Shown: one piece after another, positions 2,151 through 35,300 of the stretch
Position numbering within the stretch: position 1 is the stretch's first letter
Layout: each line of letters starts with the position of its first letter
The notes under the pieces: model-generated
The model's database searches: none
What the model was told of the DNA's origin: nothing
What the model saw: the letters and a program-made list of their open reading frames with translations, nothing else
From: Eledone cirrhosa
Taxonomy: Eukaryota
DNA: 64,000 nt
NCBI GenBank assembly: GCA_964016885.1
Contig: OZ024755.1
Coordinates: forward strand, 23,312,001 to 23,376,000
Reading direction: 5' to 3'
Position numbers and translations under genes: made by a program

Positions 2151-3640
2151 ACTATCGGAACTGTGATCTCTCAATTTGGAGAAGTAGGGGCTCTACCTGG
2201 AGTAACTCTCTGGTCTCCGAGCTACACACTCTATCGAGTAACGTTACTCCAAAGACACTTCGGAGGAACCCTGTTTCGGCCGCTTATATTTTTTCGGTCA
2301 TTACCCAAGATACATGAACATATGTATGGCTTGGAACGAATACCGAATTGAAGACAGCGAGTTTGGCTTTTACGCCTACCTCCCTTCTTCTGATTACTGA
2401 ATGCTGAAGCTGGCGCATTACTGCAACAGCTCCTGCAATTCTTGCAATTAATTCAGCCTCCTGCCTTCCATCACTCGTGAACATGGCCCCGGGATATTTG
2501 AACTTCTCCACCTGCTTCAGTGGGACTCCAGTCACATGCAGAGTGCACTGCACAGTCTTCCTTGAAAGGAGGAGTGTCTCAGTTTTCACAGCACAGATTT
2601 TCATTCCAGCCATGCAGCACACGGCATCAAATCTATCAAATACAAGTCGGAGATTACCTTCTGTCGAGTTAAGTAACACCACGTCGTCTACAAATTCCAG
2701 CTGACTGATTTTACACCCACCAGTCATGATACCACTTCCAACATGACTGCGCATGTCAATCCTTTTCAGTAATAAACAGGAGAGGTGACCCTGCACACCC
2801 TTAACAGAGTTCGACTCCTACATTGAATGGTTTCGATTTAGCATCATTTATCCGAACACAAATACTCGGGCATTCGTATAGAGACATCAGGGCAGCAATG
2901 AGCTGACCACCGATCCAATACCCCTGCACAACTTTTCATAGACTTTACCGGGGAGGCTTAACAAGGAGATCCCTCTGTAATTGGAACAATCTCTCTTGTC
3001 TCCCTTTTTGAAAATTGGGATTATCACCCCCAATTGTCCTGGCGTAGGTGGCTTTCCGGAGATCCAAGCCAGCCGGCACACACAGGTCAGCCAGGGAACA
3101 TCTTTACTATTTAAAGCTTTTACCATCTCAAGCCGGATTTCATCTTCCCCAGTGGCCTGGTCACCGTTTCCAGGTGGACCTCGTGAACATCCGAGGTTGC
3201 AGTTGTGATCGGGATTAAGAGAACAGCAAAGTATTCTCTCCGCCTCGCAAGGATGGACCCAAGACGCGTTCTTGATAGCAGGTGTGAAGGGTGGGGTGGG
3301 GCGTCTTAATACGAAGTCGGTGGGTAGTCTGCAGAACACTCTATTTGCTGTTCTAAAGTCGAATACCAGCTTAACCCCAGAGTCTTCCCATGTCTTATTT
3401 TTTGACGCCTTTACTGATTCTGTTGCGGTGCTTCATGCCTGCTTGTACCGCATGTGCAAGAAAGAGGAGGGTTTATTTCCAAGCAAAGCTGTAAGGCCTC
3501 CATTTTTGCTCGGATGGCATCTTTGACCTCTTGATTGAACCAAGGGATCCTCCGGCCATCCCCCGCGACACCGGGTATCTTTCGCCCGCACCATTTGACA
3601 GCTCAAGTAGAAACTGCTGAGCTGAACGATCTCCACTCTG
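2150..3640 (-). mobile_element. Degenerate RTE-clade (Rex3/Expander-like) non-LTR retrotransposon: linker plus reverse transcriptase, frameshifted and internally deleted
   Basis: Minus-strand ORFs 2887-3339 (GEDEIRLEMVKAL...VIIPIFKKGDKRDCSNYRGISLLSLPGKVY) and 2284-2796 (LEFVDDVVLL...VEKFKYPG...KAKLAVFNSVFVP..TY....WVMTEK) are typical RTE RT segments. The sequence towards 3640 resembles the endonuclease-RT linker. The coding sequence is broken by frameshifts. Confidence 0.85.
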
Positions 3641-4487: not shown

Positions 4488-4624
4488 TTTATCTTGACTC
4501 TGTATTCCGTTTATCTTTCACCGAAAGTGATTTTCATTGCATCTCTTCTTTCCATGATATCCGGATTACATTGAGTTCTTCATACGGATTGGACACTACC
4601 GTAAACTCTTGGTAGATTTATCTA

Positions 4625-5202
4625 CATATATATGTATATATATATGCATGTATATATGTATATATATATGCATATATATATATATATGTATAGAAATATG
4701 TATATATATATGTGTATATATATGTATAGATATATGTATATATATATGTGTATATATATGTATATATATGTATATATATATGTATATATATATGTATATA
4801 TATGTATATATATATATATACATATATATGTATATGTATATATATATATATGTATATTTATATATATATGTATATATATATGTATATATATATGTATATA
4901 TGTATATGTATATTTATATATATATGTATATATATATGTATATTTATATATATATGTATATATATATGTATATATATATGTATATATATATGTATATATA
5001 TATGTATATGTATATATATATGTATGTATATATGTATATATATATGTATGTATATATATATATGTATATATATATGTATATATATATATGTATATATATA
5101 TATGTATATATATATGTATATATATATGTATATATATATGTATATATATATATGTATATATATATGTATATATATATGTATATATATATGTATATATATA
5201 TG

Positions 5203-5253
<51 letters not shown>

Positions 5254-5254
5254 G

Positions 5255-5293
<39 letters not shown>

Positions 5294-5295
5294 GT
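4625..5295. repeat. (TA)n/(TATG)n microsatellite
   Basis: Directly visible. Confidence 0.97.
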
Positions 5296-5394
5296 ATATA
5301 GACATAGAATATTCGAAAATATTCTGTATGTTTATAATAAACATTTTGAAGACCTAATCGCTATAGAATAGAATACGTCACGTATTACAATTAG

Positions 5395-5483
5395 ATTCTC
5401 GATAAAAGCAAGGGAAGTAATCTACGCGTTTCATTCTTGTTAGAAATCATCAGGACTACATATCCAGTGCTTTTATCGAGAAT
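5395..5483 (-). ncRNA. Type I hammerhead ribozyme, copy 1 (core 5417-5459; predicted cleavage GUA^ between 5423 and 5422)
   Basis: The minus strand reads GUAGUC-CUGAUGA-U(UUCU AACA AGAA)U-GAAA-CGCG-UA-GAUUAC. This gives stem I GUAGUC/GAUUAC, the CUGAUGA and GAAA boxes, a 4-bp stem II and a palindromic ACGCGU stem III. Stem I extends via a 16-bp helix (AUUCUCGAUAAAAGCA/UGCUUUUAUCGAGAAU) after an internal loop. Confidence 0.88.
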
Positions 5484-5704
5484 GACACAGCTAGAGACTT
5501 ATAGAATACTTAGCTGTGTACAGGAACTGGTTTGAAAGAGCGGTTGCCGGTCCGGCAGAAATTAGAAATTGGAATAAATGCTCTGAAATAGCGATATATA
5601 TGTGAATATAGACATAGAATATTCGAAAATATTCTGTATGTTTATAATAAACATTTTGAAGACCTAATCGCTATAGAATAGAATACGTCACGTATTACAA
5701 TTAG

Positions 5705-5793
5705 ATTCTCGATAAAAGCAAGGGAAGTAATCTACGCGTTTCATTCTTGTTAGAAATCATCAGGACTACATATCCAGTGCTTTTATCGAGAAT
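5705..5793 (-). ncRNA. Type I hammerhead ribozyme, copy 2 (core 5727-5769)
   Basis: Identical to copy 1, offset by 310 bp. Confidence 0.88.
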
Positions 5794-6014
5794 GACACAG
5801 CTAGAGACTTATAGAATACTTAGCTGTGTACAGGAACTGGTTTGAAAGAGCGGTTGCCGGTCCGGCAGAAATTAGAAATTGGAATAAATGCTCTGAAATA
5901 GCGATATATATGTGAATATAGACATAGAATATTCGAAAATATTCTGTATGTTTATAATAAACATTTTGAAGACCTAATCGCTATAGAATAGAATACGTCA
6001 CGTATTACAATTAG

Positions 6015-6103
6015 ATTCTCGATAAAAGCAAGGGAAGTAATCTACGCGTTTCATTCTTGTTAGAAATCATCAGGACTACATATCCAGTGCTTTTATCGAG
6101 AAT
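6015..6103 (-). ncRNA. Type I hammerhead ribozyme, copy 3 (core 6037-6079)
   Basis: Identical to copy 1, offset by 620 bp. Confidence 0.88.
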
Positions 6104-6274
6104 GACACAGCTAGAGACTTATAGAATACTTAGCTGTGTACAGGAACTGGTTTGAAAGAGCGGTTGCCGGTCCGGCAGAAATTAGAAATTGGAATAAATG
6201 CTCTGAAATAGCGATATATATGTGAATATAGACATAGAATATTCGAAAATATTCTGTATGTTTATAATAAACAT

Positions 6275-11820
<5,546 letters not shown>

Positions 11821-11821
11821 T

Positions 11822-12044
11822 GTGAAGGCGTGTGGCGGAGTGGTTAGAGAATTGGATTCGCAATCGTATGGTTGTGAGTTCAATTCCTGGACCAGGCGAT
11901 GCGTTATGTCCTTGAGCAAGACACTTTATTTCACGTTGTTCCTTGGACTGGAGTTGCGACCGATAGATAGTATAAGCAATTGGAAAGACCAACGGAAACA
12001 CTGTTCCCTCGTTCCGATTTGACGAAAGTCGATTGTTCCTTTTT

Positions 12045-12045
<1 letters not shown>
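11822..12045 (+). mobile_element. tRNA-derived CORE-SINE (Arg-like head; resembles octopus OR-type SINEs)
   Basis: Pol III A box TGGCGGAGTGG (11833-11843), B box GAGTTCAATTCC (11876-11887), TCG in the anticodon-like loop, then the CORE-like TGTCCTTGAGCAAGACACTTTATTTCAC. Related copies lie at ~31430, ~42441 and ~61410 (+), and ~22100, ~26130, ~27550 and ~61000 (-). Confidence 0.8.
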
Positions 12046-12541
<496 letters not shown>

Positions 12542-14141
12542 GCTTGTGTCTTGAAGGCGTGTCAACACCAACTTGCATCTCCTCTTGCCAATCTGCGGCG
12601 GAACTCACTGGATGCTGGATATGTGCCAGAAAACCTTCTATCCCAGTCTGTTGTCCCAGTTTTCAAAAAGGAAACAAATCCCTTGCCGTGAATTACCGTC
12701 CAATCTCACTCACCTCTCATATCATTAAGGTATTTGAGAGAGTGGTGAGATCGCGAATGACCCACTTGCTTGAGAGTAACAATATGCTGAACTCCAACCA
12801 GCATAGATTCCGTAATGGAAGGGATTGCCTGACGCAGCTACTGCATCACTTTGATGACATTTTGAGAGCCTTGGGAGAGGGTTCCAACACTGATGTTATC
12901 TACCTTGATTTCAGCAAGGCCTTTGACAGGGTTGATCATAACATTCTACTGAGAAAACTGTCCAATATTGGTGTCACTGGAAAGCTGCTGCAGTGGATCA
13001 AGAGCTTCCTGTCAAACAGAACCCAACATGTTGTAGTTGAAGGAGTCAAATCCAGCCCAGCCAAAGTCAGTAGTGGGGTCCCACAAGGCACTGTGTTGGG
13101 CCCACTTCTCTTCATTATCTATATTAATGACATCACTGACATCATCAAACACAGCAACATTAAAATTTTCGCTGATGATTCCAAGCTCCAAAAGGTCATC
13201 AATGGCGTGGATGGCCGGATAAGCCTTCAGTCAGACCTACTGGCTGTTACCCAATGGGCGGAAAAGAACAACATGTTACTGAACGAAGACAAATTCGAAC
13301 TGATCCACTTTGGAAAAGAGGATGCTCTGAAACTCCCGTACTCCCTTCCCTCCGAGGAAACTCTCGTGGCATCTAACAACATCAGAGACTTGGGAGTAAC
13401 CGTGGACAGCAACATAAGCTGGGCCACGCATATAAGCAGCAAAGTTGACATGGCCCGCAGAATGTGTTCCTGGATCCTCAGAACCTTCCAGTCGAGAGAT
13501 TCCCACACCATTATCCTTCTCTTCTCTACTTTTGCCCGACCACACCTTGAATACTGTTGTCCACTGTGGTCTCCCCACACGAAACAAAGTATTATGAAAC
13601 TTGAAGCTCCTCAAAGGGCAATCACGAAAAAGATAGATGGCATGTCAGACCTTGACTACTGGGGTCGACTAGAAAAGCTGAAACTTTACTCACTCCAACG
13701 TCGCCGTGAGCGTTATATTATCTGCATGATGTGGAAAATGTTCCATCATCACTGCCCAAATGATGTTGGCGTCGCCTTCAAGATACACCCAAGGCTTGGG
13801 CCCCGTGCTATCCGTCCCATACAAAAATCTAAATCGCAACTCATAACAACAATACAGTACAATTATTTCACCTCAATCGGCCCTGCTCTCTTCAACATCA
13901 CACCAGGACACGTCAAAAATGAAAATGACCACACAAAATTCAAGAAGTCTTTGGACAAATTCCTCCAAGTAATCCCGGACAAACCACCCACACCCGGATA
14001 TGTCTCCGCAAACAGTAATTCTCTTCTCGAATGGGCCATGGTGCCCAAATCCTGAATTGAAAGACTTCGCCAGGTGGTGCTATTAAGTTAGACATGGCCT
14101 GGGCTAATACTGGCCAAAACATTTCAAAGTTATTCAAAGTT
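12542..14141 (+). mobile_element. 5'-truncated CR1-group LINE with a nearly intact RT ORF (stop at 14055) and a short 3' UTR ending in TTCAAAG repeats
   Basis: RT motifs [61 protein letters not shown] and [10 protein letters not shown]. There is one frameshift in an A-run near 12665-12670 (VVPVFKK/GNKS). Flanked by (TA)n on both sides. Confidence 0.92.
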
Positions 14142-14370: not shown

Positions 14371-14892
14371 AAACTTTGAACTTTGAACTTTGAAATGTTT
14401 TGGCCAGTATTGGCCCAGGCCATGTCTAACTTAATAGCACCACCTGGCGAAGTCTTTCAATTCAGGATTTGGGCACCATGGCCCATTCGAGAAGAGAATT
14501 ACTGTTTGCGGAGACATATCCGGGTGTGGGTGGTTTGTCCGGGATTACTTGGAGGAATTTGTCCAAAGACTTCTTGAATCTTGTGTGGTCAGTTTCTGTT
14601 TTGACGTGTCCTGGTGTGATGTTGAAGAGAGCAGGGCCGATTGAGGTGAAATAATTGTGCCGTATTGTTGTTATGAGTTGCGATTTAGATTTTTGAATGG
14701 GACGGATAGCACGGGGCCCAAGCCTTGGGTGTATCTTGAAGGCGATGCCAACATCATTTGGGCAGTGATGATGGAACATTTTCCACATCATGCAGATAAT
14801 ATAACGCTCACGGCGACGTTGGAGTGAGTAAAGTTTCAGGTTTTCCAATCGACCCCAGTAGTCAAGGTCTGACATGCCATCTATCTTTTTCG
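14371..14892 (-). mobile_element. Second, shorter copy (3' ~520 bp) of the same CR1-group LINE, inverted and tail-to-tail with the first
   Basis: Reverse complement of ~13625-14141. ORF 14462-14875 ([25 protein letters not shown]...MVPKS) has a few substitutions relative to copy 1. The tail is (TTCAAAG)3. Confidence 0.92.
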
Positions 14893-14903
14893 ATATATCT
14901 TTG

Positions 14904-17369: not shown

Positions 17370-20300
17370 ATGTCTCTGTTTGATATTAAGCGGTAAGTAT
17401 AAACATTTATTATCAACACATCATGTAATTGATTTAAATACACATATCATAGTATAGATGGAGGGCTTTTCCTTATTTTTTGTCAATGCTGTTATTTGTT
17501 TGATTGTTAAAAATACATCCGTTGTTTTAAGATAAAACTGTGTCATTAAGAAACGTATCCTCAATTTCAACACATGATAACGAGCTGCTCGTTATTGTAG
17601 TTTAATAACATTATTTTGGGGGTCAATTTAAATTAATTTTACCCCTTCTCTTCCAGTCTTGTACCACATAAAAAACAAATCAGAATTTAGATAATCTCAT
17701 CAAAAGATATGGTATTATTATGGAATACCCCACTCGATTTATTTTTTTCGTGTGCTATCAACTCATCTAACCTCCAAGATTTTGGCAATCGAGTTTCCCC
17801 CCCCCCCCCCCCCCTTGGAGTTTTTCCTACGGATTTGTTTTTCGTGTGTTATCAATGAATATGACCTCCAAGCCAGTCTGAAACCACTAGGTTTGTAGAA
17901 AAAGATGTGCAGAAAAGTTTCGCAGATCTGTGAACTGGAGGTTTGCAACACATCGCTAGAAGTAGACATACAATCTGGGAAAGACTGGCTTTGATGAAAT
18001 AATCAAAAATAGGATACTACAGAATAGGGCTCTACCATGCTATTAGCTGTCAGAAGTGAAAGTTTCGTCAACCTTCTCAATCGTAAACATCGTTTATTTC
18101 CGTACTACCACGCGTTATTTTAATAAACCATATCGATGTAAGTGGAGTTACTTAACTGAAAATATAGGTGGCCCTTAAAAGGGCCAAATTAGAAAACAAA
18201 TATATGGTTATCAAATATTTTTCACCAACTCTCCCTATACATGAAATTGATAACCATGACTATGAAAATATAAATGATTAAATCCAATTTATTTGATAAC
18301 CATGACTTGTTTTCTAATTTGGCCCTTTTAAGGGCCACCTATATTTTCATTTAAGTAACTCCACTTACATCGATATGCTTTATTAAAATAACGCGTGGTA
18401 ATACGGAAATAAACGATGTTTACGATTGAGAAGGTTGACGAAACTTTCACTTCTGACAGCTAATAGCATGGTAGTGCCCAGAATAGTGTTAAGATAGACA
18501 ATATGGACATTAAATTAATGATAATGAAAGAATAACACTGAAATATTCGACATTTTTATTCTTAATTGGAGTCATTTGAGCCTAGTGTCATTAATTAATT
18601 ACTCATCATTAATTACTTTTTGCATTGCTGTACATCCTTTCAAAAGCTATGTAAAATGTATTCTTTTCAGCTCTTGATAGAACAATTAAGAATATTGTAT
18701 ACGTAGTATTTAAATACAGGAAAAAGTTACTGATTTGGAAAAGTAGACTAATTATATAAATTAGAACAGCATTTTGAAAAACAACATATAAAGTGTTGTG
18801 TGCTCAGGCATAAAATAGGGGTGGGGTCAGCTTATATTTGAGTATATACAGTAATTAAGCCATATAATTAAATGTCCTGTCTTTGAATATGATGGAGATG
18901 CTTTGCAGCTGTTTCAAATTCACTATCACTGTGAGTCAGTTTGTATCTATTACATATAATATTACTTTTTTATTTTCCATGTTATAGGTATGATGCTGAT
19001 ACTAAGTCAGCAGAACCTGATTCAAAAAGCAAATATCTCGCTAGATTAAAACGTCTGTTAGAAGATGCAGATAAACGAAAGGAAGCAACAATATCCTCAC
19101 CAGCAGGTAAATTTTGTTTGAATTTCTCGGATGGAGAATTATTAATATTATTATTACATTGCCATTCTGAGTTCAAATCCCACCGAGGTTAACTTTACCT
19201 TTCATCCTTACGGGGTCGATAAAATAAAGTACCAGTAATGTACTGGGTAATTGCTGGCCTTGTGCTAAAAGTAGAAACAATTATTACAAGCAGAGAAAAG
19301 TGGACGTAAAATGATGATGATATAAAAATGGGAAAACTCATCGCAAGAACAGCCATTAAGATAGCTAAATGCTGTTATAGACAGTAATGGACAAAAATGC
19401 CTCAGAGACCAGCAGCCAGTGGTCAACAGAGAGACAATCCACAGGGTGGGTGACAGGGAGATGAAATATAGAAATGATTGAAAGATCATGCGAAACCATT
19501 TTGCTGGTTTGAGAGCTGATGAGGGTGAAGATGTGTATGTGTGGAGTCTTGTCTTGTACATCAGCTTTCTTTATTTCCTTATTCCAGTCACTTCTATATG
19601 CCAACACACTTCTCCTTGTCCTCCACTTTCAATCTTTTCTATATTTTATCTGCCTGTGATGATGCTTTCTGGTGTGGAGAGCCCCTATGCACAAGCCACA
19701 TTGTGGTCCCAGTAAAAAAAATGGAGAAAGTTTTACCCCAGAGGAGAGCAAGGGGAAACTATCTGTAGAGTCTCCTTCATTATTCCAAAATATTGCTATA
19801 TAAGAGAAACTTCATTCTAGAAGCAACTAGCTTTGTGAAGAATATGTTGTTATTTCATTCTGAAAGCTAGCAGTTTGCAGATATCATCATTTTATGTCCA
19901 CTTTCCATGTTAGATCATAAAGTAACTGCCCCTTAACATTCTATTCATCATCATCATCACCACCATTTAACATCTATTTTCTTTGCTTGTATGGGTTGTG
20001 TGTATATATCATATCAATGAGAATTTTATCCCCTATTCTCTGACATAATTTATTGTCTTCTCTCATTGCTATGATTTATTATGAGCTCGGTCTCTCTTGA
20101 GCTCCCTTCATCATAGGGAATTTATTGTGAGTTTCTAACTCTATATTATAATTTAATGAATAAGTGTATATATATATTAATATCAATAAATATGTGTTTC
20201 ATACATAATCTAATTCCAGGAAAATCTAAACAGACTGGTGAAGTGGTTGTCCATAAAACAGCTGATGGTGTTACTGTTGGAGAGATTAAATGTCTTGTCC

Positions 20301-23300
20301 AAGAAGAGGAAGTGCATTCAAAGAAAAAGAAGAAACATAAAGACAAGAATGAATTAACAAGTCCTAAAGTGAAGGAAATTGAAGTGGCCCCAGGGGCAGG
20401 AGAAACTAAAAGTAATCATGTATCAACTAAATCTAAAAGGAAAATTGCTGTAAATAATGACGATGATAATGAACAGATTTCTTCTGAGATTGTCAGTAAA
20501 AAAGTGAAAGTCAGTTCTGAATGTGAGGATGCTAAAGATGTAAACGAAACATCTGATGCAGAGACTGAACCATATTGCATTCAAAAGGACCAAGATTTGG
20601 AGGTCTCATTTGATAAAGAAAATGGGGAATTACATAAGAGCCCTCTTCATGAAGGACCATGTGAGTTAGGGGAATTCACTGTTCTTGGAGAATACAGAAG
20701 GCAGGAAGTACAAAAGGTATGACTACTATTCCGTTTTTCATTTCTAATGTCTTACAACTCACCACCTCTTTCCCACCATAGAAAAACTTGCCAAAACAAA
20801 GAATCGAAAGGACTTTTCAGCTGTGTCAAAAATATGACACTTTCCCTGGTCCTCAAAACAATGATCTATTGGATAATGCAGTCCAAGATACATCATCATC
20901 ATCTAATGTCCATTTTTCCACGCTAACATGCATTAGCTGAGTTGTCCTGTTGTGAGACAAGTTAGAACTGGTGACCATGTCTTGTTCATGGCTTGGTTTC
21001 TGCAGTTGGATGCCCTTCCTAATGCCAACCACATTTCCAGTGTAGACTGTGCACTTTTTGTTGTGTCACCAACACGACCACTACATATGTCCGAGAAGAG
21101 AACATGTTAATAGCATGATTACTGCTGGATAACCTTTGATCATAATTTTGCTTGATCAAAACTGATTTGGGGCTCAACTAAAAAATGTAGCATTTCTTAT
21201 GCGTAGATTTTGCCATATCCAATAATATGTTGCTATGGCAAGTTACCCAGTCCTCTTTACAGTTTTCACCTTGTCGTCATCAAGCAGCACACTTATGATT
21301 AAAAAGCCCTCCAGTCATGACCAAACTATCTCAGGTTTCCAATGTCATCTTAAGTAAAAATAGCAAGATGTGATTTAAAGAAAATTTGGCTGTTCTTTTC
21401 AGCCATGTGAGTGACCACATAGAGGCTCTCTTGGTTCATTTTTACCATTCTTTACTTTGACTTTATTTTCATCCAGTGAGATGGATTAACATCAATATGA
21501 GCAGCAGGTTACAGCCTGTTTGAACAGAAAGAAGTGAGAGAATTCTGGCCAGATACAGCCAGTTTAAATGCTAAAGGGTTAATCAACTTTCCCCTTCCCC
21601 CAAAATTGTCTTTGTGCCTAAATAAGAAACCATTATTTTCATCTTTATTACAGGTTTCATGGAAATTACCTGATTGGCTAGTCAAACCAAATTTGATAAA
21701 AACTGACCTGACTGAAGAAAAGACACATATTTCTGAATTTGTTGGTCTTGATGATAAACTAAAGAAAAAGCTCATAGACAATGGAGTCAACTATTTCTTT
21801 CCTGGTAAGTCTTTCTCTCCATCTCTATATACTGTTTCTGTCATTGCCATACAGTATATTAGATTATCTGATAGATCAACTGATGGAGCTGGTACAATAA
21901 TGTGCAAGCTTCAGTACTCAGTCCTCAGAAGAAAGAGAGGTTTAAACTCTGTCTCGAGCCTGGAAGCTCATAAGGCCAGTACTTATTCCGGTTTCTATGG
22001 CATAAAGTGACTGAGAGTACAAAACTCCCCCTTGGACAAGACACCAGTCCACTGCAGGATTAAACTCCCATCTATTGCTGGTACTTATTTTTTAGCTGAG
22101 TATATTAGAGCAATATGAAATGAATTTTTTTGCTTAAGAACACACAATCTAGGTGAAGAATTGAACTCACAACATTATGATCGCAAATCCAACACCCTTA
22201 CCACTAGGTTGTGCACTACCACAAAGAGAGGTAGTTGTAAAAGCTAAATTTGCTATCTTCAGTATGGAGTTCATGCCTACCCTTACCTATGATCATCAAT
22301 CTTGGGTAGTGACTGAAAGAATATGATCACAAATACAAGTAGCCCAAATAGGGTTCCTCGGAAGGGTCTTTGGAGTAACATTACTTGATTTAGTGCATAG
22401 CTCCAGGTAGAGCTGCTACTTCTCTGAACCAAGAGATAACAGCTGAGATACTATAGAGGTGGTTAGAATGACTAAGGAAAGAATTGCTTGACAGATTTTA
22501 CAAGCAAAGCCAACTGACAGGAGACCCTGTGGTAAACTTTGAATAAGGTGGTTGGATAATATCCATAAGCTCGGATGTTCTTGTTTGGGATGCTGCCACA
22601 TCATTTGGTGAAGGTTACTTCTGATAGGACCTGCTGGAATATTTCTTTGAGGAATCTGCCATAAAGACCCTCAAAGGAATAAGTGGGCAAAAAAAAGAAG
22701 ATATATCATAAATCAGATTCAACTATGCACATTCAGTTATTTGATCTACTAAATTTCTGTGTAAGTGAATGAATATTCCATTGATAAGCGTACCCTTATT
22801 GAAATTCTTGGGCCAAATCAACATGACACAGTATGTGATAAAGCTGGACCTTTGAATTAGAAGCAAAATCCATCTGATGGTCTTTTACATAGTTTATTGT
22901 GTTGGCCCAGGATACCACTGGGTGGGATTGAACACTGAAACTGTTGACTGCAAAGTAAACTTTAACCACTTACCCATGCCTACATCTATATTAGTTCATC
23001 TAAAACATTTGATTATTTAAAGAGAGGGCCAGCAGCAGAAGAATCTGTCCTGAATGGTCTATTGTTTTAAGTTCAGTACTCTGCCAGGTCACTGATGATG
23101 ATGATAATAATTGTTTCTACTTTTGGCACAAGGCCAACAATTGATTTAAATTAACTGGTATTTATTTTATCATCCTTTGGAAGGACAAAAAGACAGAGTT
23201 AAAGTTGGCAAGTTTTGAAATCAGAACATAGAGGGACATAATTAAATACTATAACGCATTTCATCTGAATCACTAATGATTCTGGCAATCCTCTACCCTA

Positions 23301-26300
23301 ATAATATTGATGATGATGACGACAAAATATTGCACTAAAATAAATTTATTAGAAAATTAGTCTGGTAAAATATTTAATTGGTTTATCTTTATGACATTAA
23401 AACTAAAATAGAACTAAGGGAGAAAGACAGGAAACAAAATAGCATTTTCCTTACTGATGACATTAAAACTAATTATTTTATTGCTTAATTATTTTTTCAT
23501 TATTTTATTGATTACAGTCCAGTGCCAGTTGCTTCCAGTTCTACTTAACGACGTTCGTTTTGGTGTGAATGTTGGTTGTGGAGGATACCGTCCTCGGGAT
23601 ATCTGTTGTTCGAGTCCAACTGGCAGCGGGAAGACATTTGCATTTGTCCTACCAATTCTTCAGGTGCAGTTCCAATATATCATTATTACTTTTGGTTACC
23701 TTAGGGCTTATCGTGCTGAAGTTGTTTTTAGATTCTGTTCTCTCATACCATATGCCTCTCCAGTAATATGCATGCATGGACCTATAACCCCTGAGGGAGT
23801 CAGGCGAGTGCCATATTGACATACACCATTTCTAGGGCATTTTTTAAAACCTGACGGATCCCATCTCCTCTTTAGGTCTGAACATAGCAGATTTCTTCCA
23901 AAGAAGGATAGAGAGAAAGAGAAAGTGGTATAGAGGAAGAATTAATTCCAGTACTAGACTGGTACTTTTTTATCGACCTCGAATGGATGAAAGGCAAAGT
24001 TGACTTCAGCGGGATTTGAACTCAGAAAGCTGAAACGAATGCCGCAAAGTATTCTAATGACTGCCAATTCTCTACCTTCTCCAGTAATATACTGGAGGTT
24101 AGTTTCATCAAATATACCCTGTTCTTTTACCAAAGGAGCTATTATATCTTTACTATTATCAATATAGATTCTGAACAAATTTTTTTTCTCTATTTATGTG
24201 TTATTAGTTTTAAAAAAATTTTTTTAAATTTCTTTTGTCAGTCACTCAAAGATCGAGTTGTGTGTCGTGTAAGAGCTATTGTTATTTTACCTGCCAGGAG
24301 CCTTGCACAACAAGTATTCAATGTTTTCCAAACTTATGCTGCAGATTTGAAACTGAAGGTAAACATTTTTGTGCTATTTTCAATAAAAAAATTTAGACGT
24401 TTATATAATTAATCTTTATCTTTAGATTATTCTAGTTTGGTGATTACAGATTTAAAGTAGAACTTATATCTTTGCCAACAAAGTCTTAGGTCTTACCTTT
24501 TAAGTCACCAAATACCTGTAATTTTATTGGGTATATTTTGATTTCTGTCAGAAGTTGAGACCAGTAGATAGTATCACCAATGGAAATATTGTTTACTTGG
24601 TCTGATTTGACGAGTTCCATCCCACTTGGTATTTAAATGGGGTCTGGGATCTTGTCAAGCAATTCAATCAATCAATAGATATTTGAGTTAGCTATGGCCC
24701 TTCCTTTTGGCAGCCAATAAGAAATAGAGACTTTCTATTTCTTCTATTGTTCACCTTTTTTTATTTTGTCATCATAATCCAGGGTTTATTTTAAGAAAAT
24801 TTTAGAATTACACAAATCTCTGACTATAAAATACTGACATGTAACTATTTCAATCTATTTCTCTTTTGTTTCCTAGGTTGTCTTAATTATGGGAGAGAAA
24901 TTCTTTCAAAGGGAACAGGAATCTCTAGTTAAGAGAAGGTTGGCATATTTTTTTTTTTTTTGTTCAGTTTTTATGTAAATCTAGTCACATGTTTGTTTTT
25001 CAATTATACTGTATATCTTACATTTACATACATATATATATTTAAACAAACAATGTACAAAGCCGAATTTTGGGCTTTTTTTAAGTGCTGAGAATATATA
25101 AGTATAAAAAAATGTGCTCTAGTGTGAGAGTGCTATAAAGATAGCTTATAAAATAGGGATGTATATCTGCCTGTCTGCTGATGGAAGATATGGGGTTCAA
25201 TTCCTCTTTAGTGTTATTTCCATGATATAATGTGCCCACTATGCTGTAAAGAATCCCCCAACCCTTTTTTTAAAATTGCTTATATAGCTTATTCATGGGA
25301 AAATGCATCCAGTACATTTTATAAAATTGTAGTTCTGGTTTCATGATAAAATGCACCTAGTACATTCTGTAAAGTGTTATTTCGGGTGGCACAATAAACT
25401 GCACCCAGTACATCCTTTAAGGTAGTTGGTGTTAGGAAGAGCATCCAGCTGTAGAAATCATGCTAAATATAGAACATATGAGCAAGATATTGTCTCTCAG
25501 ACCTGTCTAGCCTTGGATGGACCATGGAAACCAATCCAATCCAGTCCAGCATGGATGATGTTACATGTATCTTATTTGTTTCATAATAGTTTGTGTAAGC
25601 TGTATGAACTCGTATCAAATAATATTTTTATATGTAAACTCAGTCTTTCCCTGCAAAAGTTCTGCGATACTGTCTAATGTGGTAAACAGCCAGTACCTTC
25701 TTTTTAGAATGTCTTCTAAAAATATTTGTTTTGTCTGTCTTAACAGTTTATATCCTACATAAATTGATATTTATTACAAAACTATTTTTTTTTCTAATAA
25801 ATTAACCCTTTTAAAGAGCATATATTTCTGTCACAAGTACATTCTGCTTTTGTTTTAGTTTTCAAAATAATCCAGGATTATGAAAGTTGTAGTGAAATAA
25901 CTAATGGTAAAAAATGAGTAAAGATCCCTCTGGTCATGAATGACCTTGGGTTTTGCACCAAGAGAGGACTCTGAGGCAGAAGCCTGGGCATGGTATTTTT
26001 GTGGAAGACCAGCAGTTGTCCATGTATGCCAGTCTCCCTTCTCCAAACCACTGATGCTGTCCAAGGGAAAGGCAATGGCTGATACAGCTTGGCACCAATG
26101 ACATCACTGAGTAAACTGGAGCACCATGAAATAAAGTGTCTTGCTCAAGGACATCACACACCACTCAGGAATTGAACTCAGAACCTCATGATTGTGAATC
26201 CAATGCTCTGACAACTAAGCCATATGCCTTCACTAGTGAAATGACTAACTTTCAACTCAATAATGATAACTTTTCATGTAATAATGAGATTTCTGTCTTA

Positions 26301-29300
26301 AGATTTTCATTTAAATTTGAACTTTTTAAGTTGGCTGGGGTGTAGCCGTACTCGCCACACTTGGTCAATTGTGCGTTGGTGAGGCTATTTAACCCATAGT
26401 TGACTCTGAGGAATTTATCTGCCTTTTTAAGGTTGAACATATTCTATATATATTAACTTTAAATTTCTTTTTCTTATTGTTTATTAAAGACCTTATGGCT
26501 TTGAAAGTTTGGCTGACATTGTTGTGGCAACTCCTGGAAAATTAGTTGATCACCTCTCTCAAACTGAAGGTTTTGATTTAAGTTACCTAAGGTTTTTGGT
26601 AAGTTGCTTGCATTTTTGTACATTGGACTTTTGGGGTACCCTATATACTCGAATATAAGCTGAGGTATATCTAACCAAAAAATCGATGGTACAAAGTAGA
26701 TCGACTTATATTCAGGGTTAATATTTTGACAATTTTCACCAACTTCATATTCTATATAAATAAGGTTTGGATTTTTGCCCATTTCTCAGGCATAAAATGG
26801 TAGTCAGCTTATATTTGAGTATATACTGTAATTCTTTTTTTTTTATTTCCACACTGTACTGTGCATCAGTCCATTTTTTATTTCATCTTTGTTACTATTC
26901 CAGTAATATGTTAGTTTATACTATTATTAGCGTCATCTTTGCTACTATTTTAGTGGTCATGTGGGTGTCATGACAAAAGTGAGCACCCACCCCATGCTGT
27001 AAAGTGGTCGTGTAGGTGTCGCAACAAAAAGCTCCCAGTCCACGCTGTAGGTCATGTAGGTGTCGCAACAAAAAGCACCCAGTCCATGCTGTAGGTCGTG
27101 TAGGTGTCACGATAAAAAGCACCCAGCCCACACTGTACAGTGGTTGTGTAGGCAGCATGGCAAAAAGCACCCATCACACACTGTAGATGTGGTTGGTGTC
27201 AGGAAGGGCATCCAGCCGTAGAAACCAAGCCAAAATCAGTTCTGTGTGAGCGAATCATGGTCCCCCGAGCTGATCCCTCACAAGGGGACAGCCTGTCTTA
27301 CCCATGCTAGCATGGAAGATGGATAATGATCATCATCATCCTTTTACATCCGCTTTTTCCCTGCTTGCAAGGGTGGGACAGGAACTGATTCTGGCTTGAT
27401 TTCTACAGCTGGATGCCCTTCCTAACACCAACCTCATTTACAGTGAGTGCTGGGTGCTTTTTTGCTGTGGCACCCCCACGACCACTTTGCAGTGGAATGA
27501 TATGGACCCCAGTCCTATCATCTCATTTCTACAGCTGAGTAAACTGGAGCAATGTGAAATAAAGTGTCTTGCTCAAGGAAACAGCACATCACCCAGTCTG
27601 AGAATTGAACCCACAACCTTTCGATTGCTAGTAATATATAAACCGGGGGTTGCAAGCTATTTTTCTATGGCCCTGACAGAACAGTTTTCGTGATCAATAT
27701 TGACCTAGTGCATGATAGGTACATTATTTATCAACTCTAAAGGATGAATGGTTAAATTGACCTCAGGGATATTGAACTCAAAATACATAGAGCTGAAACA
27801 AATAGCACAAGACATGGTAGCTCTACTTGTTACTGTGGAGTGGTTTAATATCCAGCTATAAGGTCAGTTGCTGCAGCTAATAAACCATCAGGCCCATACA
27901 AGCATGTGAGATAAATGGTTGTAAGACATCAAGGGAACAAATGATCACACATTTTACAGAAGGGGGTAGGCTTAAAAGCCAAACTCACTATCTCCAATTC
28001 GGTTTTCATACCAACCCTTACCTATGGTCATGAATCTTGGGTAATTACCGAAAGAATACAAGTGACCGAAATGGGATTTCTCCCAGGGGACTTTGGAATA
28101 ACATTACTCAATAAAGTGCTTATCTAGGAGATCAAAGCCACTCAAGGTAGAGCCGCTACTTCTTGAGAGATCACAGCTCCAATACTATGGACATGTGGTG
28201 AGAATGTCTCAAGAAAGAATCGTTAGACAGATTTTATTGGTGAAACCAACAGGTAGGAGACCAAGAGGTAGATCCCAAACAAGATGGTTGGATAACATCC
28301 ATGAACTTGGCTGGTCACGCTTAGGGATCCAGCCAGATCAGTTGGAGACAGTTGCTTTTGACAGGGCCTGCTGGGGGTAGTGTTTGAGGACTCTGCCCCC
28401 CATGACCCTCTCGGGAATAAGTCGGCGAAGAAGATGATGGAGTATGAGTTGGATGAGTTATTGAATTGTAAAGTTTGTTTGTAAAAAAATGAGGTGGATG
28501 TGAGAGGCCAACAAGTAAACAGGAGGGGGAAATCAAGGTTATATTGCTTTGACTTTGTTTCTTTTTACTAAGGTCATTGATGAAGCAGATCGTGTTTTTG
28601 ACATTATAAAGTATGACTGGTTAGCCAACTTAGAGAAAGCTGTTTACAAAATGTCTACTTCTGAGTCTGGGACCAATGGTAGACCAATGCCTGGTCCCTT
28701 AACAATAATGCAGTGAGTCAAAAGTTTTCATTCATATTCTTCTATCAACACTACTATTACCACCACTACTATCACCTCTACAACTATCAACACTGCTGTC
28801 ATCTCTATTACTATGACCTCTACTACTATTACTGCTATTACTATCAGCACTACTATCACCTCTATTACTAACTACCCTATTATACTACTACCACCTTTAC
28901 TACTATCAACAACTAATTGTCACTACAACTTCTATTATTATTGGTATTATCACTGTCACCAATTATTATCAGCACCATCTCTGTTACCACCAACAACACC
29001 AACACTACATGCTTGCAATGAATAAGTAAATAGTTTTTGATTCTTCCATTATCAATACTATTAAGTAAAATTCATAATTGTATTGTTCTCTATTTACAGA
29101 GCTTCAAAGATTTCCTTTCCGGTAAGGACAAAACATTGAAATATCTTCATTACTTCTCATCCTCATCGCTTTTCCTTTTGCTAATGTCTTTATCATAGTT
29201 TGTTTGTTTTTTAATTACACAGCAACAGCTCGGAGGCAGATCAACTTCGGTCAGAATGTGCCAGCCCACTGTAAATTACATATGTAAACATTAAAATGGA

Positions 29301-32300
29301 TATTTTTATAGAATAAGAGCAAAACTGAGAATAAAAAAAAAAAATTCTGAGACTGCTCTTCCAGCAATGGGCTTCTCAGGGTTGCTTACATGTAAATAAT
29401 CTTGATCAACTAGTATTATTTATCTGTTACCACATATCTCAACATACTTTGGCATTTTTCAGGCCCACAATCAAAGTTATTCTAACTATGACTTTCCTGT
29501 CTTTTCAAATTGTTTATATCAGACTACATTATTTCAATTCCTATTTTTTTAAAGACAGTAGGGTGTGATTTGAAAGATATCTGACTGCTGTTTTTAGCAG
29601 ATCAAACAACCACATAAGGGCTTCCCCTGCTAGCACATTGACTCTTTTACTTGTGCTTAGACTGTTCTCTGGGGTACCACTATCTGTTTATATATTTAAG
29701 AAAAAAAAAAAAATTTTTTATTTTATTTGTTCTTGCCAGTGTTCTCTGCGCTACTATCTTTTGTTTATAATTTCTTTTAAAGTTTTTTTTTCTTTTTTCA
29801 ATTTTCAAATTCCAGTTCCAAAAGTTGCTGTTTTCAGCCACCCTCACAGATGATTCTGAGAAACTGAGGAAAGTGAATCTCTTTCAACCCCGTCTCTTTC
29901 TTGCTTCTAAAAAAATTCTCAACAAATCTACTCAGTCTGAAAACAGAGAATCTACTCAACTCAGTGATGGTAATGTCTTATTCTGTTTTCCTCTTTCTTT
30001 TTGTTTTATAATTAAATTTAATGTTGATATTTGGAACATAACTTAACAATGTTTTTTCATAAAATTATGATGGAAGTTTTTTAGATAAATATAAACACTT
30101 TAACCCTTTTGATACCAAACCACCTGAAGCTGCCTCCTGGTTTTATGATATAAAAACTGTTTATTTTAACCCTTTAGCATTTAAACCGACCACATCTGGC
30201 CAGAATTCTCTCTCTTCTTTCTGTTCAAATCGGCTGTAACTGGCCGCTCATACTGATGTTAAGGTATTGTTCTCAAAATAAATAATATCAAAATCTCATA
30301 GATTCGATATTATGAGATAATTACATGAGGTAAAGCCTTTACTGTAAAAATATAATAGTATATATAGAATAATGCAAATGCTAAAAGGTTAAAGTGTTTA
30401 TATTTATCTAAAAACCTTCCATCATAATTTTATGCAAGAACCTTTGTTATGTTATGTTCCAAACACTACTAACTTAATAATGAGAAAGTAAGTTATATTA
30501 TTAAATCCCTCCAAATTCTTGATTATTTTCAAAATTATTTGAAAAATCCTAGGCAGTGTCTTTCATTAGAAATATGATAATGAAAGGGTTAATTAAATTA
30601 TATTCTTCAATTTCAGATTCAAAGAAACAAAACGACACCAAAGTTAATGGTGAACAAAATATCAGATTTATCATTCCTGAAAGTCTTAAGGTATATTTAT
30701 TTTACAATTATTATTCGTAGTATATATTTTACTATATTTTTTTCCTCCTAATCAGAAAGAACTTATATGCTACATAGCCTACACCACTTATCGGTTTTTA
30801 TTCACCATTTAAACATAATGTGTCAATTAGCTGCCTCTGGGTTTGGATTTTTGCCTAAAAAGTGGGAGTCAGGGGTTTTTTTTCTTTCTCAGGATATTAG
30901 AAATACTGAGTGAATATTGTCTGGGCAGAAATTATAAATATAAAAATATAATTTTCAAGCTAAAATGAAACCCAAATCAATATTCTTAAGGATAATTTTA
31001 CCTTATTATCAAAAACGGGGAATAGTTGGATTTTTTCAGCAATAGGACGATGGAATGTATATGTATTGATGCTGAATATAAATGTAAACATCAATATTGA
31101 TCCTTATTGCAGGAAATAGATGCTAAAATGCAATAGAAATAACATTTGATACATAATAAATGACTGTTAAGTTTCAGAAAGATGGTACAATGCGGTAAAA
31201 ATATATAAAGGGCAGAGGATGTCAAATAAATCAAAATAAAGTAATGATTCTTTTGTTTTATTTGTCATCTTTTGCCCTTTATATATTTCTATTGCATTGT
31301 ACTGGCTTTTTGTCATTCATTACATATCCCACAATACTTCATATTAATTATAAAGTTTGATAGATATTTAGATGTCTGAATGTGTGTCTTTATTTAATCA
31401 TTTACATGTGCATAACAAAATAAAATAAAAATGAAGGCACATGGGTTAGAGAATTGGATTCACAATCATGAGGTTGTAAGTTCAATTCCTGGACTACATA
31501 ATGTGCTATGTCCTTAAGAAAAACACTTTATTTCACATTGCTCTTTCTGCCAGGTCTGAAATCTTGTGGATCATTTAAAGAAAGAAAGAAGAAAATAAAT
31601 TGTTATGCAATATGGTAGCTTAATGTAGAAGTAACTGAGTTCTTGTCGAGTGAATTCTTAAATCTTTTTTCTTCAACGAACAAGCAAGCATATTAATGAA
31701 ATCTTAAATTGTCTTTCTTTATCCACAGGAAGAGTATGTGATATGTAATCCTTCTGAGAAAGTTATTGCTCTGGTTCATTTTGTCCTTGATCAAGATTTT
31801 CATAGTGTAATTTGCTTCACTAACTCAATTGAATCAACTCATAGGTAAGTATATTTTTGCTGTGCACCCAGCCAACTCTATAGAGTGGTAGTGCTGGTGC
31901 CATGATAAAATGCACCCAGTCTAATCTTAGCTAGTGAGATCAGTGGTTTGTTACTACATGAGCTATTTAGTTTAATAGTTTACCACATGAGCTGTTGAGT
32001 TCAGTGGTTCCCTCCAAAATGAACTATTGAGTTTAATAGTTATTTACTACATGAGCTATTGAGTTTCATGGGTCCCTCCCACCAAACTTTCTAGCTTTGA
32101 AGCTTTGATAGAAATTGTTCTGATTGTTGTTGTAGCAAGGGATTCTGGTAGTGGCATTGGTGTTCATCATTATTATCATTTAACATCCTTTTTCTCTGCT
32201 AGGGGTCAATAAAAGTACCAGTCAAATACTAGGGAGGGTGGGTGGGGGAGATAGTATGATTTACTGCCCTCCCTGTCCCCTTTTAGCTTTGTGCTTATCG

Positions 32301-35300
32301 ACATTTCCATGCTGGCATAGTAGGGCTACACCTCTGTCATCACCAAAACCAAACAGAGAGTGGTGGAGGTCAACCTGGAAGGGGATCCTCCAACAGGCGT
32401 GAGAAGGGCTTGGATTGGATATCTATGCCTATTCTAATCACAAGTATATTTACATCTAAAATGACAAAACTGTCTCCTAGTTTTCCTTTTCTTGATGAGC
32501 CCTGCACATTCGAGGTTGATATCTGGCCACAGAACAACAACAATCTTGACAGTTTGATTTAGAATAAATAGTTATAATGTTTAATTGTGTGTCCTGTTTA
32601 TTTGTTCCAGACTCTGTCTCCTTCTTAAATTAATTAACAAATTTCCTGTTGATGAATTTTCATCAAGAATCAAAGGAAAGCAAAAAGAAAGTATTTTATC
32701 AAAATTTTCCAATGGTTCCATTAGATTGTAAGTATAGTCACATTTTTTCTTTGAAATGTTCTTATATCTTGTCTAAGTGAAACTACTATTAATATTAGGT
32801 GAGATATTTGTCACAATTTTGGTACTGGTGTTTGTTGCAGAAGTAACGGCATTGGTAGCAATAGATACTTGTATTTGTATCTGTATCAGTGTTCACCTAA
32901 GATGGGTTGAATCTGCTCCATCCAGTGATTCCATACTATTGCAAATAAGTCACCCACCCATGCATGGTGAACACAGACATCTGATGTGGGTATTTGTCAA
33001 CTAGTCACATTTCCAGTGAAGTCACTCATCCATATATGGCTATCACAGACTTCTGGCGAGAGTATTATTTGTCCACTAGTCACAATTCCAATGGTGGACA
33101 CAAGATATATATAAAGACCAGCATTGATATATTAGTTCAAGATTCAACTTGAGCCAATCCATGTTTTTAGCTGTCTGCTTTGCTATTTATGCCATTTTAT
33201 TTTTCTGTAGGTTGGTGTGTACAGATGCAATGGCCAGAGGAATTGACTTGCTTAATATAGACCTTGTTGTCTCCTATGATTACCCAAAGTATGTGGAGAC
33301 ATACATTCATCGTGTTGGCCGCACTGCACGAGCTGGCCGTGAAGGTACCTCTGTCAGTTTGGTGGCTAATGGACAGGTAATTGATCTTCTTAGTTCAATA
33401 TATTTTTATAAAATGAATTGTGTGCAGGAAAGGAAGCAGTTTTTTTTAATACGAAATAGGAGAACTGTTATAAAAGGGAGTGAATGTATTGTTGTATATT
33501 GTTATTAGTTGTGTTGTTGGTTGTTTTGACTTTGATGCAAGGCATATATATTATTTGTTTTAATGGAACTATATAAAATATTACTTATGTAAAAGTCAAC
33601 ATTTCTACACCAGATTAGGTTAAATGTTCTGCCTTCCATCATTCGTAATGGAAGGCAGGAGGCTGAATTAAATACAAGATTTGCTATTTTCAGTTCGGTG
33701 TTTATGCCTACTCTTACCTATGGTCATGAATCTTGGGTAGTGACCTAAAGAATATGATTGGGGATACAAACAACTGAAATGGGTAAGTAGCTCAGAGATC
33801 AGAGAGTCACTTCAGGTAGAGCTACTACTATTCTGTATTACAAGATCAAAGCTTTGGTATTATGGTCATGTGGTTAGAATGTCTAAGGAAAGAATCACTG
33901 GACAGATTTTAACAGCAAAGTCAACAGGTAGGGGACCCAGCAGTAGACCATGAGCAAACCAACTGGTAGGAAATCCAGAGGTAGACTATGAGCAAGATAG
34001 TTGGATAACATCCATAAGGTTAGTTAGTCTCACTTTGGAATCCATTTGGATCCAGTTGCTTCAGATAGAACCCTCTGGAAGGTGTGTCTGAGGACTCTGC
34101 CCCCATTGGCTTAGCCAGTAAAATCTGTCCAGTGATTCTTTCCTTATACCTTCTAATCATAGTAGTGGAGCTTTGATCTCTCAATGCAGAGAAGTAACTG
34201 CTCTATCTGGAGCAACTCCCTGATCTCTGAGCTGTGCACTCTATCAAGTAATGTTACACCAAAGATCCTTTGGAGGAGCCCCATTACAGCCACTAGTATT
34301 CGTGATCAGATTCTGTCAGTCATTACCCAAGATTTATGACAATAGGAAAGGGTAGACACAAACAGCAAATCGAAAATAGCAAGTTTAGCTTTTACACCTA
34401 CCTCTCTTCTGATGAACGAATGTTGAAGCTGGTGCATTATTGCACCATCTTCAGCAATTTTTTTTTTTATTTAATTCAGCAGCACCAATTTTATAATATG
34501 TTTTCCTTTATTTTCTGAAAATGTATTCAAGGTTGTTCACTTGAAAGCAATGCGTAAACAGTGCCAAACCCAAAATAAAATTTTTCAAATAAAACTCACA
34601 AATCAAATTAGAAAAAAGTACTTCCCCCTTCTACACAGCGCTGTTGAAGCTCTGCCTGCATCATTAAAGGTAATTATGGAATTGTCAATATTTGTTATCA
34701 TTCTGATTGTACATTAATTTGATATGGGGTCCATTACCAAAGGTTGATACCCTATTTAACCCTTTTTTTTTCCATATTTCTAATGAAAAGCTCTGCCTAT
34801 GGTTTTCAAATAATTTTGAAAGTTATCAAGAATTTTTAGGGAATTTGATTAAATAATTAACTATTTTATTATTAAAGAAAGTGACTGAAGCATTAAAAAA
34901 ATCTCCTACATAAAATTATAGAGGAAGGTTTTTAGATGAGTATAAACATTTTAAAACAACCAGTTTTCTATCATAGGATTGGGGGCAGTTTTGTATCAAG
35001 AATGTTAACTCTTTCATGACATCAAACTACCTATTTGAATTTTCAAAATAATCAAGAATTTGTTGGTGTTTTGAATGTATGTTATTTACACCCCACTATT
35101 TTATGTCTGAGAAATGGGCAAAAATCCAAACCTTAGAATTTCAGTCTCTCATAGTAACATTTCCAGGCCTCTTTCTTTTCTCCAACAATATCACAATTCA
35201 CACTGACACACTGCCTTGCAATGCAGAACACTTCGTATCTCTGATCCTCACGTTTCAGGATGTTGGCAAATTTTCTTTCTTAGCCACCTGGTACTGTTCT

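Follow-up and report, generated by a model that had tools for sequence, protein, structure and literature searches.

The hammerhead ribozyme at positions 5395-5483 of a 64,000-nucleotide stretch of Eledone cirrhosa DNA (OZ024755.1, 23,312,001 to 23,376,000; this whole stretch is referred to as the window) is a standard animal type I hammerhead within a 310-bp non-LTR retrozyme. What is new, beyond the known ribozyme design, is the anatomy of the insertions that this retrozyme makes. The junctions appear to connect retrozymes with double priming of the Penelope type and, probably, with rolling-circle reverse transcription. We consider it likely that a Neptune-type Penelope-like protein copies 310-nt retrozyme circles round and round into (TA)n tracts.

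The copy in the window is embedded in some 8 kb of (TA)n and comprises the following features.

5296..6274, minus strand: one-armed retrozyme insertion, 979 bp, 3.2 identical 310-bp units (exact period-310 identity)
5395..5483, minus strand: hammerhead copy 1, with extended stem I
5705..5793, minus strand: hammerhead copy 2, identical to copy 1
6015..6103, minus strand: hammerhead copy 3, identical to copy 1
5423..5732, minus strand: cut-to-cut monomer of 310 nt (unit position 1 = 5732), the putative circular RNA
5594..5610, minus strand: upstream end site of the family (unit positions 123-139), putative reverse-transcription start
5561..5568, minus strand: downstream end site of the family (unit positions 165-172), putative second start
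5296..5300, minus strand: RNA-sense 3' junction (unit position 123-127), joined to the TA tract
6270..6278, minus strand: RNA-sense 5' junction (unit position 79), joined to the TA tract
4622..5295, no strand: left part of the (TA)n target tract
6275..12541, no strand: right part of the (TA)n target tract

The only reading frames of at least 110 aa that touch the array enter it from the TA tracts, so the unit is non-coding. As the flanks are (TA)n, a target-site duplication is unreadable. The 310-nt monomer folded as a circle has a predicted energy of -67.8 kcal/mol. The ribozyme fold costs only 1.5 kcal/mol within this predicted circle and is therefore not expected to be blocked in it.

All features named by an earlier sequence-only reading of the hammerhead were found on the minus strand at the positions that it gave. 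Its parts are as follows.

5483-5468 with 5410-5395, minus strand: 16-bp helix (from fold and sequence)
5395..5410, minus strand: 3' strand of the 16-bp helix (partner 5483-5468); three inherited changes, all keeping the pairing
5467-5460 / 5416-5411, minus strand: internal loop
5459-5454 with 5422-5417, minus strand: stem I, 6 bp, one G-U
5411..5422, minus strand: 3' strand of stem I (5422-5417) and of the internal loop (5416-5411)
5447..5453, minus strand: core CUGAUGA (positions 3-9), only N7 variable among inherited variants
5433..5446, minus strand: stem-loop II with U10.1/U11.1 mismatch, 3-4 bp, loop UAACAA
5423..5432, minus strand: GAAA (5432-5429), palindromic stem III hexamer ACGCGU (5429-5424) and A17

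The ACGCGU stem III, the U-U at the first stem II position (U10.1 at 5446 opposite U11.1 at 5433), the GUA cleavage triplet, the looped stem I and the 16-bp helix described by that reading are all confirmed, and the predicted cut falls between 5423 and 5422. As in type I hammerheads generally, a CUGANGA and GAAA core is combined with an NUH triplet, stems I and II pair, stem I is open and variants keep the pairing. The 111-nt strand carrying the hammerhead folds at -32.7 kcal/mol (z = -4.88; none of 200 shuffled sequences was as good), an advantage that, according to the folding model, comes mostly from the 16-bp helix. Stem III is absent from the fold of the monomer: closing one pair costs 5.2 kcal/mol, the 2-nt loop being outside what the model can score, while a 6-bp self-duplex of ACGCGU has a computed energy of -7.5 kcal/mol. 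Two details of the reading hold in part. Loop II is present, but instead of AACA it is better read as the 6-nt UAACAA, because this is how the alignment to Rfam Hammerhead_HH9 (RF02275) places it and because a sister family (see below) has C and A, which are unable to pair, at the corresponding loop ends. The internal loop of stem I is also present, but folding predicts a 3-bp helix inside it, which leaves only a short bulge beside stem I. Judging from these comparisons, the 6-nt loop II and the short bulge would be the canonical docking pair. The HH9 alignment is full-length at 19.2 bits, below the gathering score of 52, and no hammerhead in the Rfam scan of the window reached its gathering score. 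The core, the 6-nt loop II and the stem I bulge are shared with HH9; the differences are the stem III reduced to a palindrome and the U-U in place of G-C.

The architecture had been considered unusual, yet a short palindromic stem III and the U-U pair have both been published for animal type I hammerheads. In most metazoan representatives helix III measures 1-2 bp, a palindromic loop of 2-4 nt closes it and the ribozyme acts as a dimer, the short helix being thought to let multimers cleave while sparing monomeric circles (PMC4209133). An axolotl motif has U-U at the base of helix II and was 22% cleaved as a monomer (PMC7229834). The latter study defined non-LTR retrozymes, found that dimers cleave better and demonstrated circles, formed most likely via a host ligase. 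The 310-bp family resembles the animal elements described there (axolotl HHR_Amex1/Amex2, coral, mussel) in its tandem units within the 150-450-bp range, a GC content below 50%, one type I hammerhead per unit, thousands of dispersed copies and no protein, as well as in the weak or palindromic helix III and, in the case of Amex2, the U-U at the helix II base (PMC7229834). It differs in combining the 2-nt palindromic loop with U-U, and the circles, shown there, are putative here. The text of PMC7229834, as far as available, describes no inverted two-armed insertions, fixed ends or TA targeting.

The exact 43-nt hammerhead core occurs 4,177 times in the 3.0-Gb genome (reversed control, 0), and a variant-tolerant motif pattern finds 18,178 family copies, which is a minimum. 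At about 9 units per insertion, 18,000 units would correspond to an estimated two thousand insertions or so; matches to the junction pattern lie on at least eight contigs. The family is very young.

To describe the insertions, we sampled 72 regions of contig C1, 12 selected by the ribozyme core alone and 60 by end patterns that include TA; these represent nearly all listed ends up to 118 Mb, and all insertions come from this one contig. Locus L041 (the same insertion as L073), the first L068 copy (a gap-flanked duplicate) and two old diverged copies in L048 were excluded before counting, and L035 was merged with L034. After removal of one duplicate there are 72 insertions, 61 two-armed and 11 scored as one-armed; for three of the 61, the second end was taken from an adjoining locus or from the end-pattern list. 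In the two-armed insertions the arms are inverted, and each outer end is an RNA-sense 3' end that joins (TA)n. The two ends differ in a regular way: in 61 of 61 cases one lies 125-139 nt past the cut site and its partner 165-172 nt past it, with no homotypic pair. Among the 12 core-selected insertions 10 are two-armed, and all 10 are heterotypic. Visible 3' ends abut (TA)n in 22/22 cases in the core-selected set and in 131/131 overall, the latter partly by selection. Inner junctions are scattered, with a 0-4-nt overlap in 42/61. One of the 11 one-armed cases abuts a gap and another has a 7-nt second arm; eight of the remaining nine end at the upstream site, as does the insertion in the window. 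A pure TA run joined at unit position 123-127 gives 141 pattern matches (the flank of the window insertion, with one G two bases out, is not an exact match), and the downstream end site gives 738 matches on the reverse strand. By comparison, the pattern for TA fused to the ribozyme cut site has only three matches genome-wide, of which two are internal point variants.

An inverted 5'-truncated copy, a one-sided tail of 30-40 bp and a bias to (TA)n are marks of Penelope-like elements (PMC8557442). All 61 two-armed insertions consist of an inverted truncated copy with a one-sided tail, and the (TA)n target is that of Neptune and Naiad. The stretch between the two end sites, 26-47 nt compared with 30-40 nt in Penelope-like elements (PMC8557442), would be the Penelope-type tail; it is also the best-conserved 31-nt segment relative to one sister-family unit (28/31 identical). 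The protein of a Poseidon element cuts and extends both DNA strands in vitro and uses two internal RNA start sites, the spacing of which equals the tail (PMC11167929). The inverted truncated copy, the one-sided tail, the (TA)n bias and the two start sites together point to Penelope-type double priming. As in Penelope-like elements, the ends lie about 90-180 nt past the hammerhead and priming is internal rather than terminal, whereas the retrozyme has no ORF, a unit of 310 bp instead of kilobases, and arms of many units. It also adds a rule of one site per strand; no strand difference was seen in bulk in vitro (PMC11167929). Inverted two-armed retrozyme insertions or fixed ends were not found in the literature searched, although supplements (figure S9 of PMC7229834, those of the vertebrate preprint 10.64898/2026.07.22.740005) may show them; in the preprint's available text 'tail' and 'target site' are absent and 'inverted' occurs only within a reference.

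The arms also carry information about the template. The cut site is crossed by 116 of 122 arms and crossed at least twice by 99; the longest arm is 8,459 bp. Only 2 of 132 5' ends fall within 3 nt of the cut site, as against 2.6 expected, so there is no pile-up, although the distribution of 5' ends around the unit is not quite uniform (KS p = 0.025). We distinguished 29 haplotypes among 62 insertions. Within insertions the units are 99.95% alike, with 108 minority base changes in 196,640 bases (0.055%, a figure that may contain assembly errors), and 58 of 60 arm-fixed variants occur in both arms. Substitutions damaging to the fold (core, palindrome, helices) make up 0 of 26 distinct inherited but 17 of 74 minority substitutions (Fisher p = 0.005; a near-fixed variant in L071 and L073 was scored as fixed, and indels were excluded). 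The inherited ones are found at N7, in loop II, at U10.1 (to A, which pairs), as wobble changes and in the linker, and all seven in helices keep the pairing; for the 16 positions of core and palindrome taken by themselves, the zero count lacks significance, as about 1.3 changes would be expected among 26. The ribozyme thus seems to be needed for the spread of the family. Since the cDNA nevertheless crosses the cut site, a religated circle is the best explanation. Not all data are this simple: 4 of 33 testable minority substitutions (two variants in two insertions, L082 and L094) occupy the same round in each arm, and L034/L035 has two variants that reappear seven units away, so some templates were multimeric or the arms were converted. 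A 340-nt contig (unit plus overlap) present in three of four sequencing runs was rejected as evidence for circles, as tandem DNA gives the same result; the fourth run contains many unit variants at high depth.

The reading had further proposed that the palindromic stem III makes cleavage dimer-dependent and thereby favors the accumulation of circles, and had suggested looking for covariation among genomic copies. The hexamer is self-complementary and yet changes across families (ACGCGU, ACUAGU, ACCGGU, AGUACU); the changes are double ones that preserve self-complementarity, a requirement of the dimer model, and the palindrome together with A17 is intact in 18,050 of the 18,178 family copies. 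The core is likewise retained, none of the 26 inherited substitutions being damaging. Cleavage as a dimer through the stem III palindrome therefore gains comparative support as a sequence-based proposal, while for a switch that would spare the monomer circle the support is indirect, coming from the low cost of the ribozyme fold in the predicted circle and from the arm lengths of the sister family; with this addition, the interpretation appears largely to restate the published model. Against the reading, the U-U is not required, because 13 of 67 insertions have A at U10.1 and thus an A-U pair, and the U-U motif of axolotl retained 22% cleavage as a monomer (PMC7229834).

One source of the palindrome changes is a second, otherwise unrelated family (G000; 12,832 matches, control 2), whose units measure 466-502 bp in the two arrays read. 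It shares the U-U and loop II with the 310-bp family, but its stem II is changed and the palindrome is ACUAGU in 97/100 among the matches listed. Here too the insertions (L150-L155, C1:5541142-5543703) have two arms, the ends of which lie about 55-60 nt from each other. The units of L152 (484/502/484/494 bp) differ at one base in alternation, a pattern expected from a dimeric circle. The second family and the 310-bp family are found in common TA tracts (L047, L055).

The sister family (L163-L206 and L104:2425-2870, among others; at least 3,425 motif matches, 68.8% identical, unit of about 318 bp) has the same two end sites, but its stem III has 3-4 bp and positions 10.1-11.1 are mostly G-C or A-U. 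Its arms are short, with a median of 244 nt compared with 1,161 in the 310-bp family, and only 1/66 exceeds two units compared with 100/135; these lengths come from BLAST against one unit, which may fragment diverged copies, and six overlapping loci were left out. The contrast fits a more stable circle in the dimer-only family, as far as can be judged from a single lineage contrast confounded by the older age of the sister family. Against the switch, the sister family reached its 3,425 or more motif matches with no minimal stem III. Many of its copies have a core variant with U3/A8 in place of C3/G8, which may be a compensatory change; the same variant occurs in two Neptune-like 3' ends. A 17-unit sister-family array with divergent units (L187, C1:82389500-82396500) looks like an old satellite. 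A short inverted element ending in TA (L132:7091-7187, L139:5216-5308, L128:183-208, L167, L185) has a hammerhead-like core and the stem II of the window's ribozyme, with no clear stem I or triplet.

Potential protein sources are abundant. The genome contains 10,595 GIY-YIG candidate loci, of which 150 were scored, and open frames of 938 and 1,096 aa combine reverse transcriptase and GIY-YIG with a CX4CX2C linker, as in autonomous elements; the Neptune clade was assigned from this motif. Three Neptune-like families carry 3' hammerheads with a palindromic stem III (ACCGGU or AGUACU), two of the three with U-U. The Neptune-like element at locus L134 is inverted; beyond a hammerhead with U-U and a palindromic stem III, its two ends fall in (TA)n at a spacing of about 60 nt. 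Among the 40 GIY-YIG loci examined, no autonomous element with the retrozyme's end region and no pLTR homologous beyond the ribozyme was found, nor did the 3' regions of 12 long-ORF loci contain a partner. Two candidates were rejected: the Penelope-like ORF beside L033 belongs to a different, GC-rich element across an assembly gap, and the homology in L104 is a separate sister-family insertion in a TA tract past a Neptune 3' end rather than a partner's pLTR. Locus L124 (C1:145869500-145877500) contains a Neptune-like element that has an open frame of 938 aa and carries the same hammerhead at either side; its close relatives at L125, L128, L131, L132 and L135 suggest a young family.

In the mechanism that we favor, adjacent hammerheads of a tandem transcript would pair via the palindrome into a 6-bp stem III and cut, a lone monomer cutting poorly, and the 310-nt monomer would be closed by a host ligase. 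The GIY-YIG endonuclease would cut both strands of the TA tract, and each target 3' end would prime inside the same RNA, one at about 125-139 and the other at 165-172 nt past the cut site. Each enzyme would then pass the ligation junction, for up to 27 rounds, and the two cDNA ends would be joined at a short microhomology. Failure of the second priming would leave a one-armed insertion such as that in the window. A more specific version, in which a reverse transcriptase-endonuclease dimer sits on one circle with one fixed site per strand, and shrinkage of stem III to a dimer-only palindrome was the circle-stabilizing change that turned a short-insertion family into a long-array family, is put forward tentatively, as somewhat doubtful. 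Points against the favored mechanism are the preference for uncleaved RNA in the anole in vitro data, the lack of a partner among the 40 loci examined, the mirrored variants and the non-uniform 5' ends.

Some of these would be natural if Penelope-type double priming used an uncleaved or partly cleaved linear multimer transcribed from an existing array, with circles a by-product or absent. For the anole Penelope-like protein, uncleaved RNA was the main substrate in vitro and ribozyme mutants had no effect on insertion (PMC11167929), a dimer-dependent ribozyme should leave multimers, and the mirrored minority variants in L082 and L094 and the seven-unit recurrence in L034/L035 are as expected from such templates. 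We nonetheless judge this rather improbable: haplotypes seen only once are uniform over 14-22 units, which would demand a bottleneck of a single unit and subsequent re-multiplication, variants that damage the ribozyme are not inherited, and partly cut RNAs would pile 5' ends at the cut site, where only 2/132 lie. That short copies insert and then expand in place by unequal crossing-over or slippage, like satellite DNA, has been proposed for vertebrate retrozymes (10.64898/2026.07.22.740005), and the divergent 17-unit array L187 has the appearance of such a satellite. For the 310-bp family this is quite unlikely, since both inverted arms are long and have the same variants (58/60), the units within insertions are 99.95% alike, and the outer ends are fixed while the inner ends are scattered.

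Still less probable is mobilization by a LINE protein, with the inversions produced by LINE twin priming through chance microhomology to AU-rich stretches. LINE-type reverse transcriptase ORFs are indeed found in the TA tracts of the window, and the upstream site contains an AU repeat able to pair with a TA target. In LINE twin priming, though, the second primer is used at variable sites, and here the second site is fixed at 165-172 despite a target match of only about 2 nt; the same two sites are retained in the 68%-identical sister family, and there is neither a poly(A) end nor an end at the cut site. We give hardly any credence to the hammerhead being a passive relic in a repeat that spreads without ribozyme activity. 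Its Rfam score is below gathering, eight of nine Xenopus retrozyme dimers showed no cleavage (10.64898/2026.07.22.740005), and the unchanged core and palindrome positions are in themselves not significant; even so, inherited variants keep the pairing where minority ones break it, and in the second family stem II and the palindrome are fully changed while the architecture is the same.

Penelope-like elements have been named only as likely candidates for retrozyme mobilization (PMC7761336), and both the enzyme and the circle template of animal retrozymes are still proposals (PMC7229834; PMC7761336; 10.64898/2026.07.22.740005). The preprint on vertebrate retrozymes as pLTR derivatives likewise reports co-occurrence with Neptune-like elements and a common hammerhead design, but it argues from co-occurrence and homology and favors local tandem amplification, whereas the junction anatomy here favors multimers formed during insertion (10.64898/2026.07.22.740005). 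Which enzyme mobilizes animal retrozymes, whether the template is a circle, and how the inverted arms and one-sided tail of Penelope elements arise can now be tested with the 310-bp family. Being young, it provides exact start sites, the one-site-per-strand rule and a 310-nt template small enough for in vitro work, and the sister family, in which stem III is longer by nature, allows the idea of a dimer switch to be examined by comparison. An enzyme able to turn a small RNA circle into many-unit DNA at TA repeats could also make an interesting tool.

The window contains several further features. A degenerate hammerhead-like motif in an intron (62315-62355, plus strand) has the core, the U-U and a 3-bp stem II, with no valid triplet. 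LINE-type reverse transcriptase fragments lie beside or within the TA tracts at 11971-14055 (plus), 14462-14900 (minus) and 2284-3432 (minus), the first two in inverted orientation with a common C-terminus. The region 20117-33508 (plus) contains exons of a DEAD-box helicase gene (DEAD and Helicase_C domain matches), and exon-like segments at 45979-46578 and 62150-62270 presumably encode a protein resembling a 2-oxoacid dehydrogenase E2 or E3-binding subunit. An Rfam Histone3 match exactly at the gathering score (18316-18360, plus), with no histone frame upstream, forms one arm of an inverted repeat, with the second arm about 150 bp farther upstream, and is probably a small DNA element.
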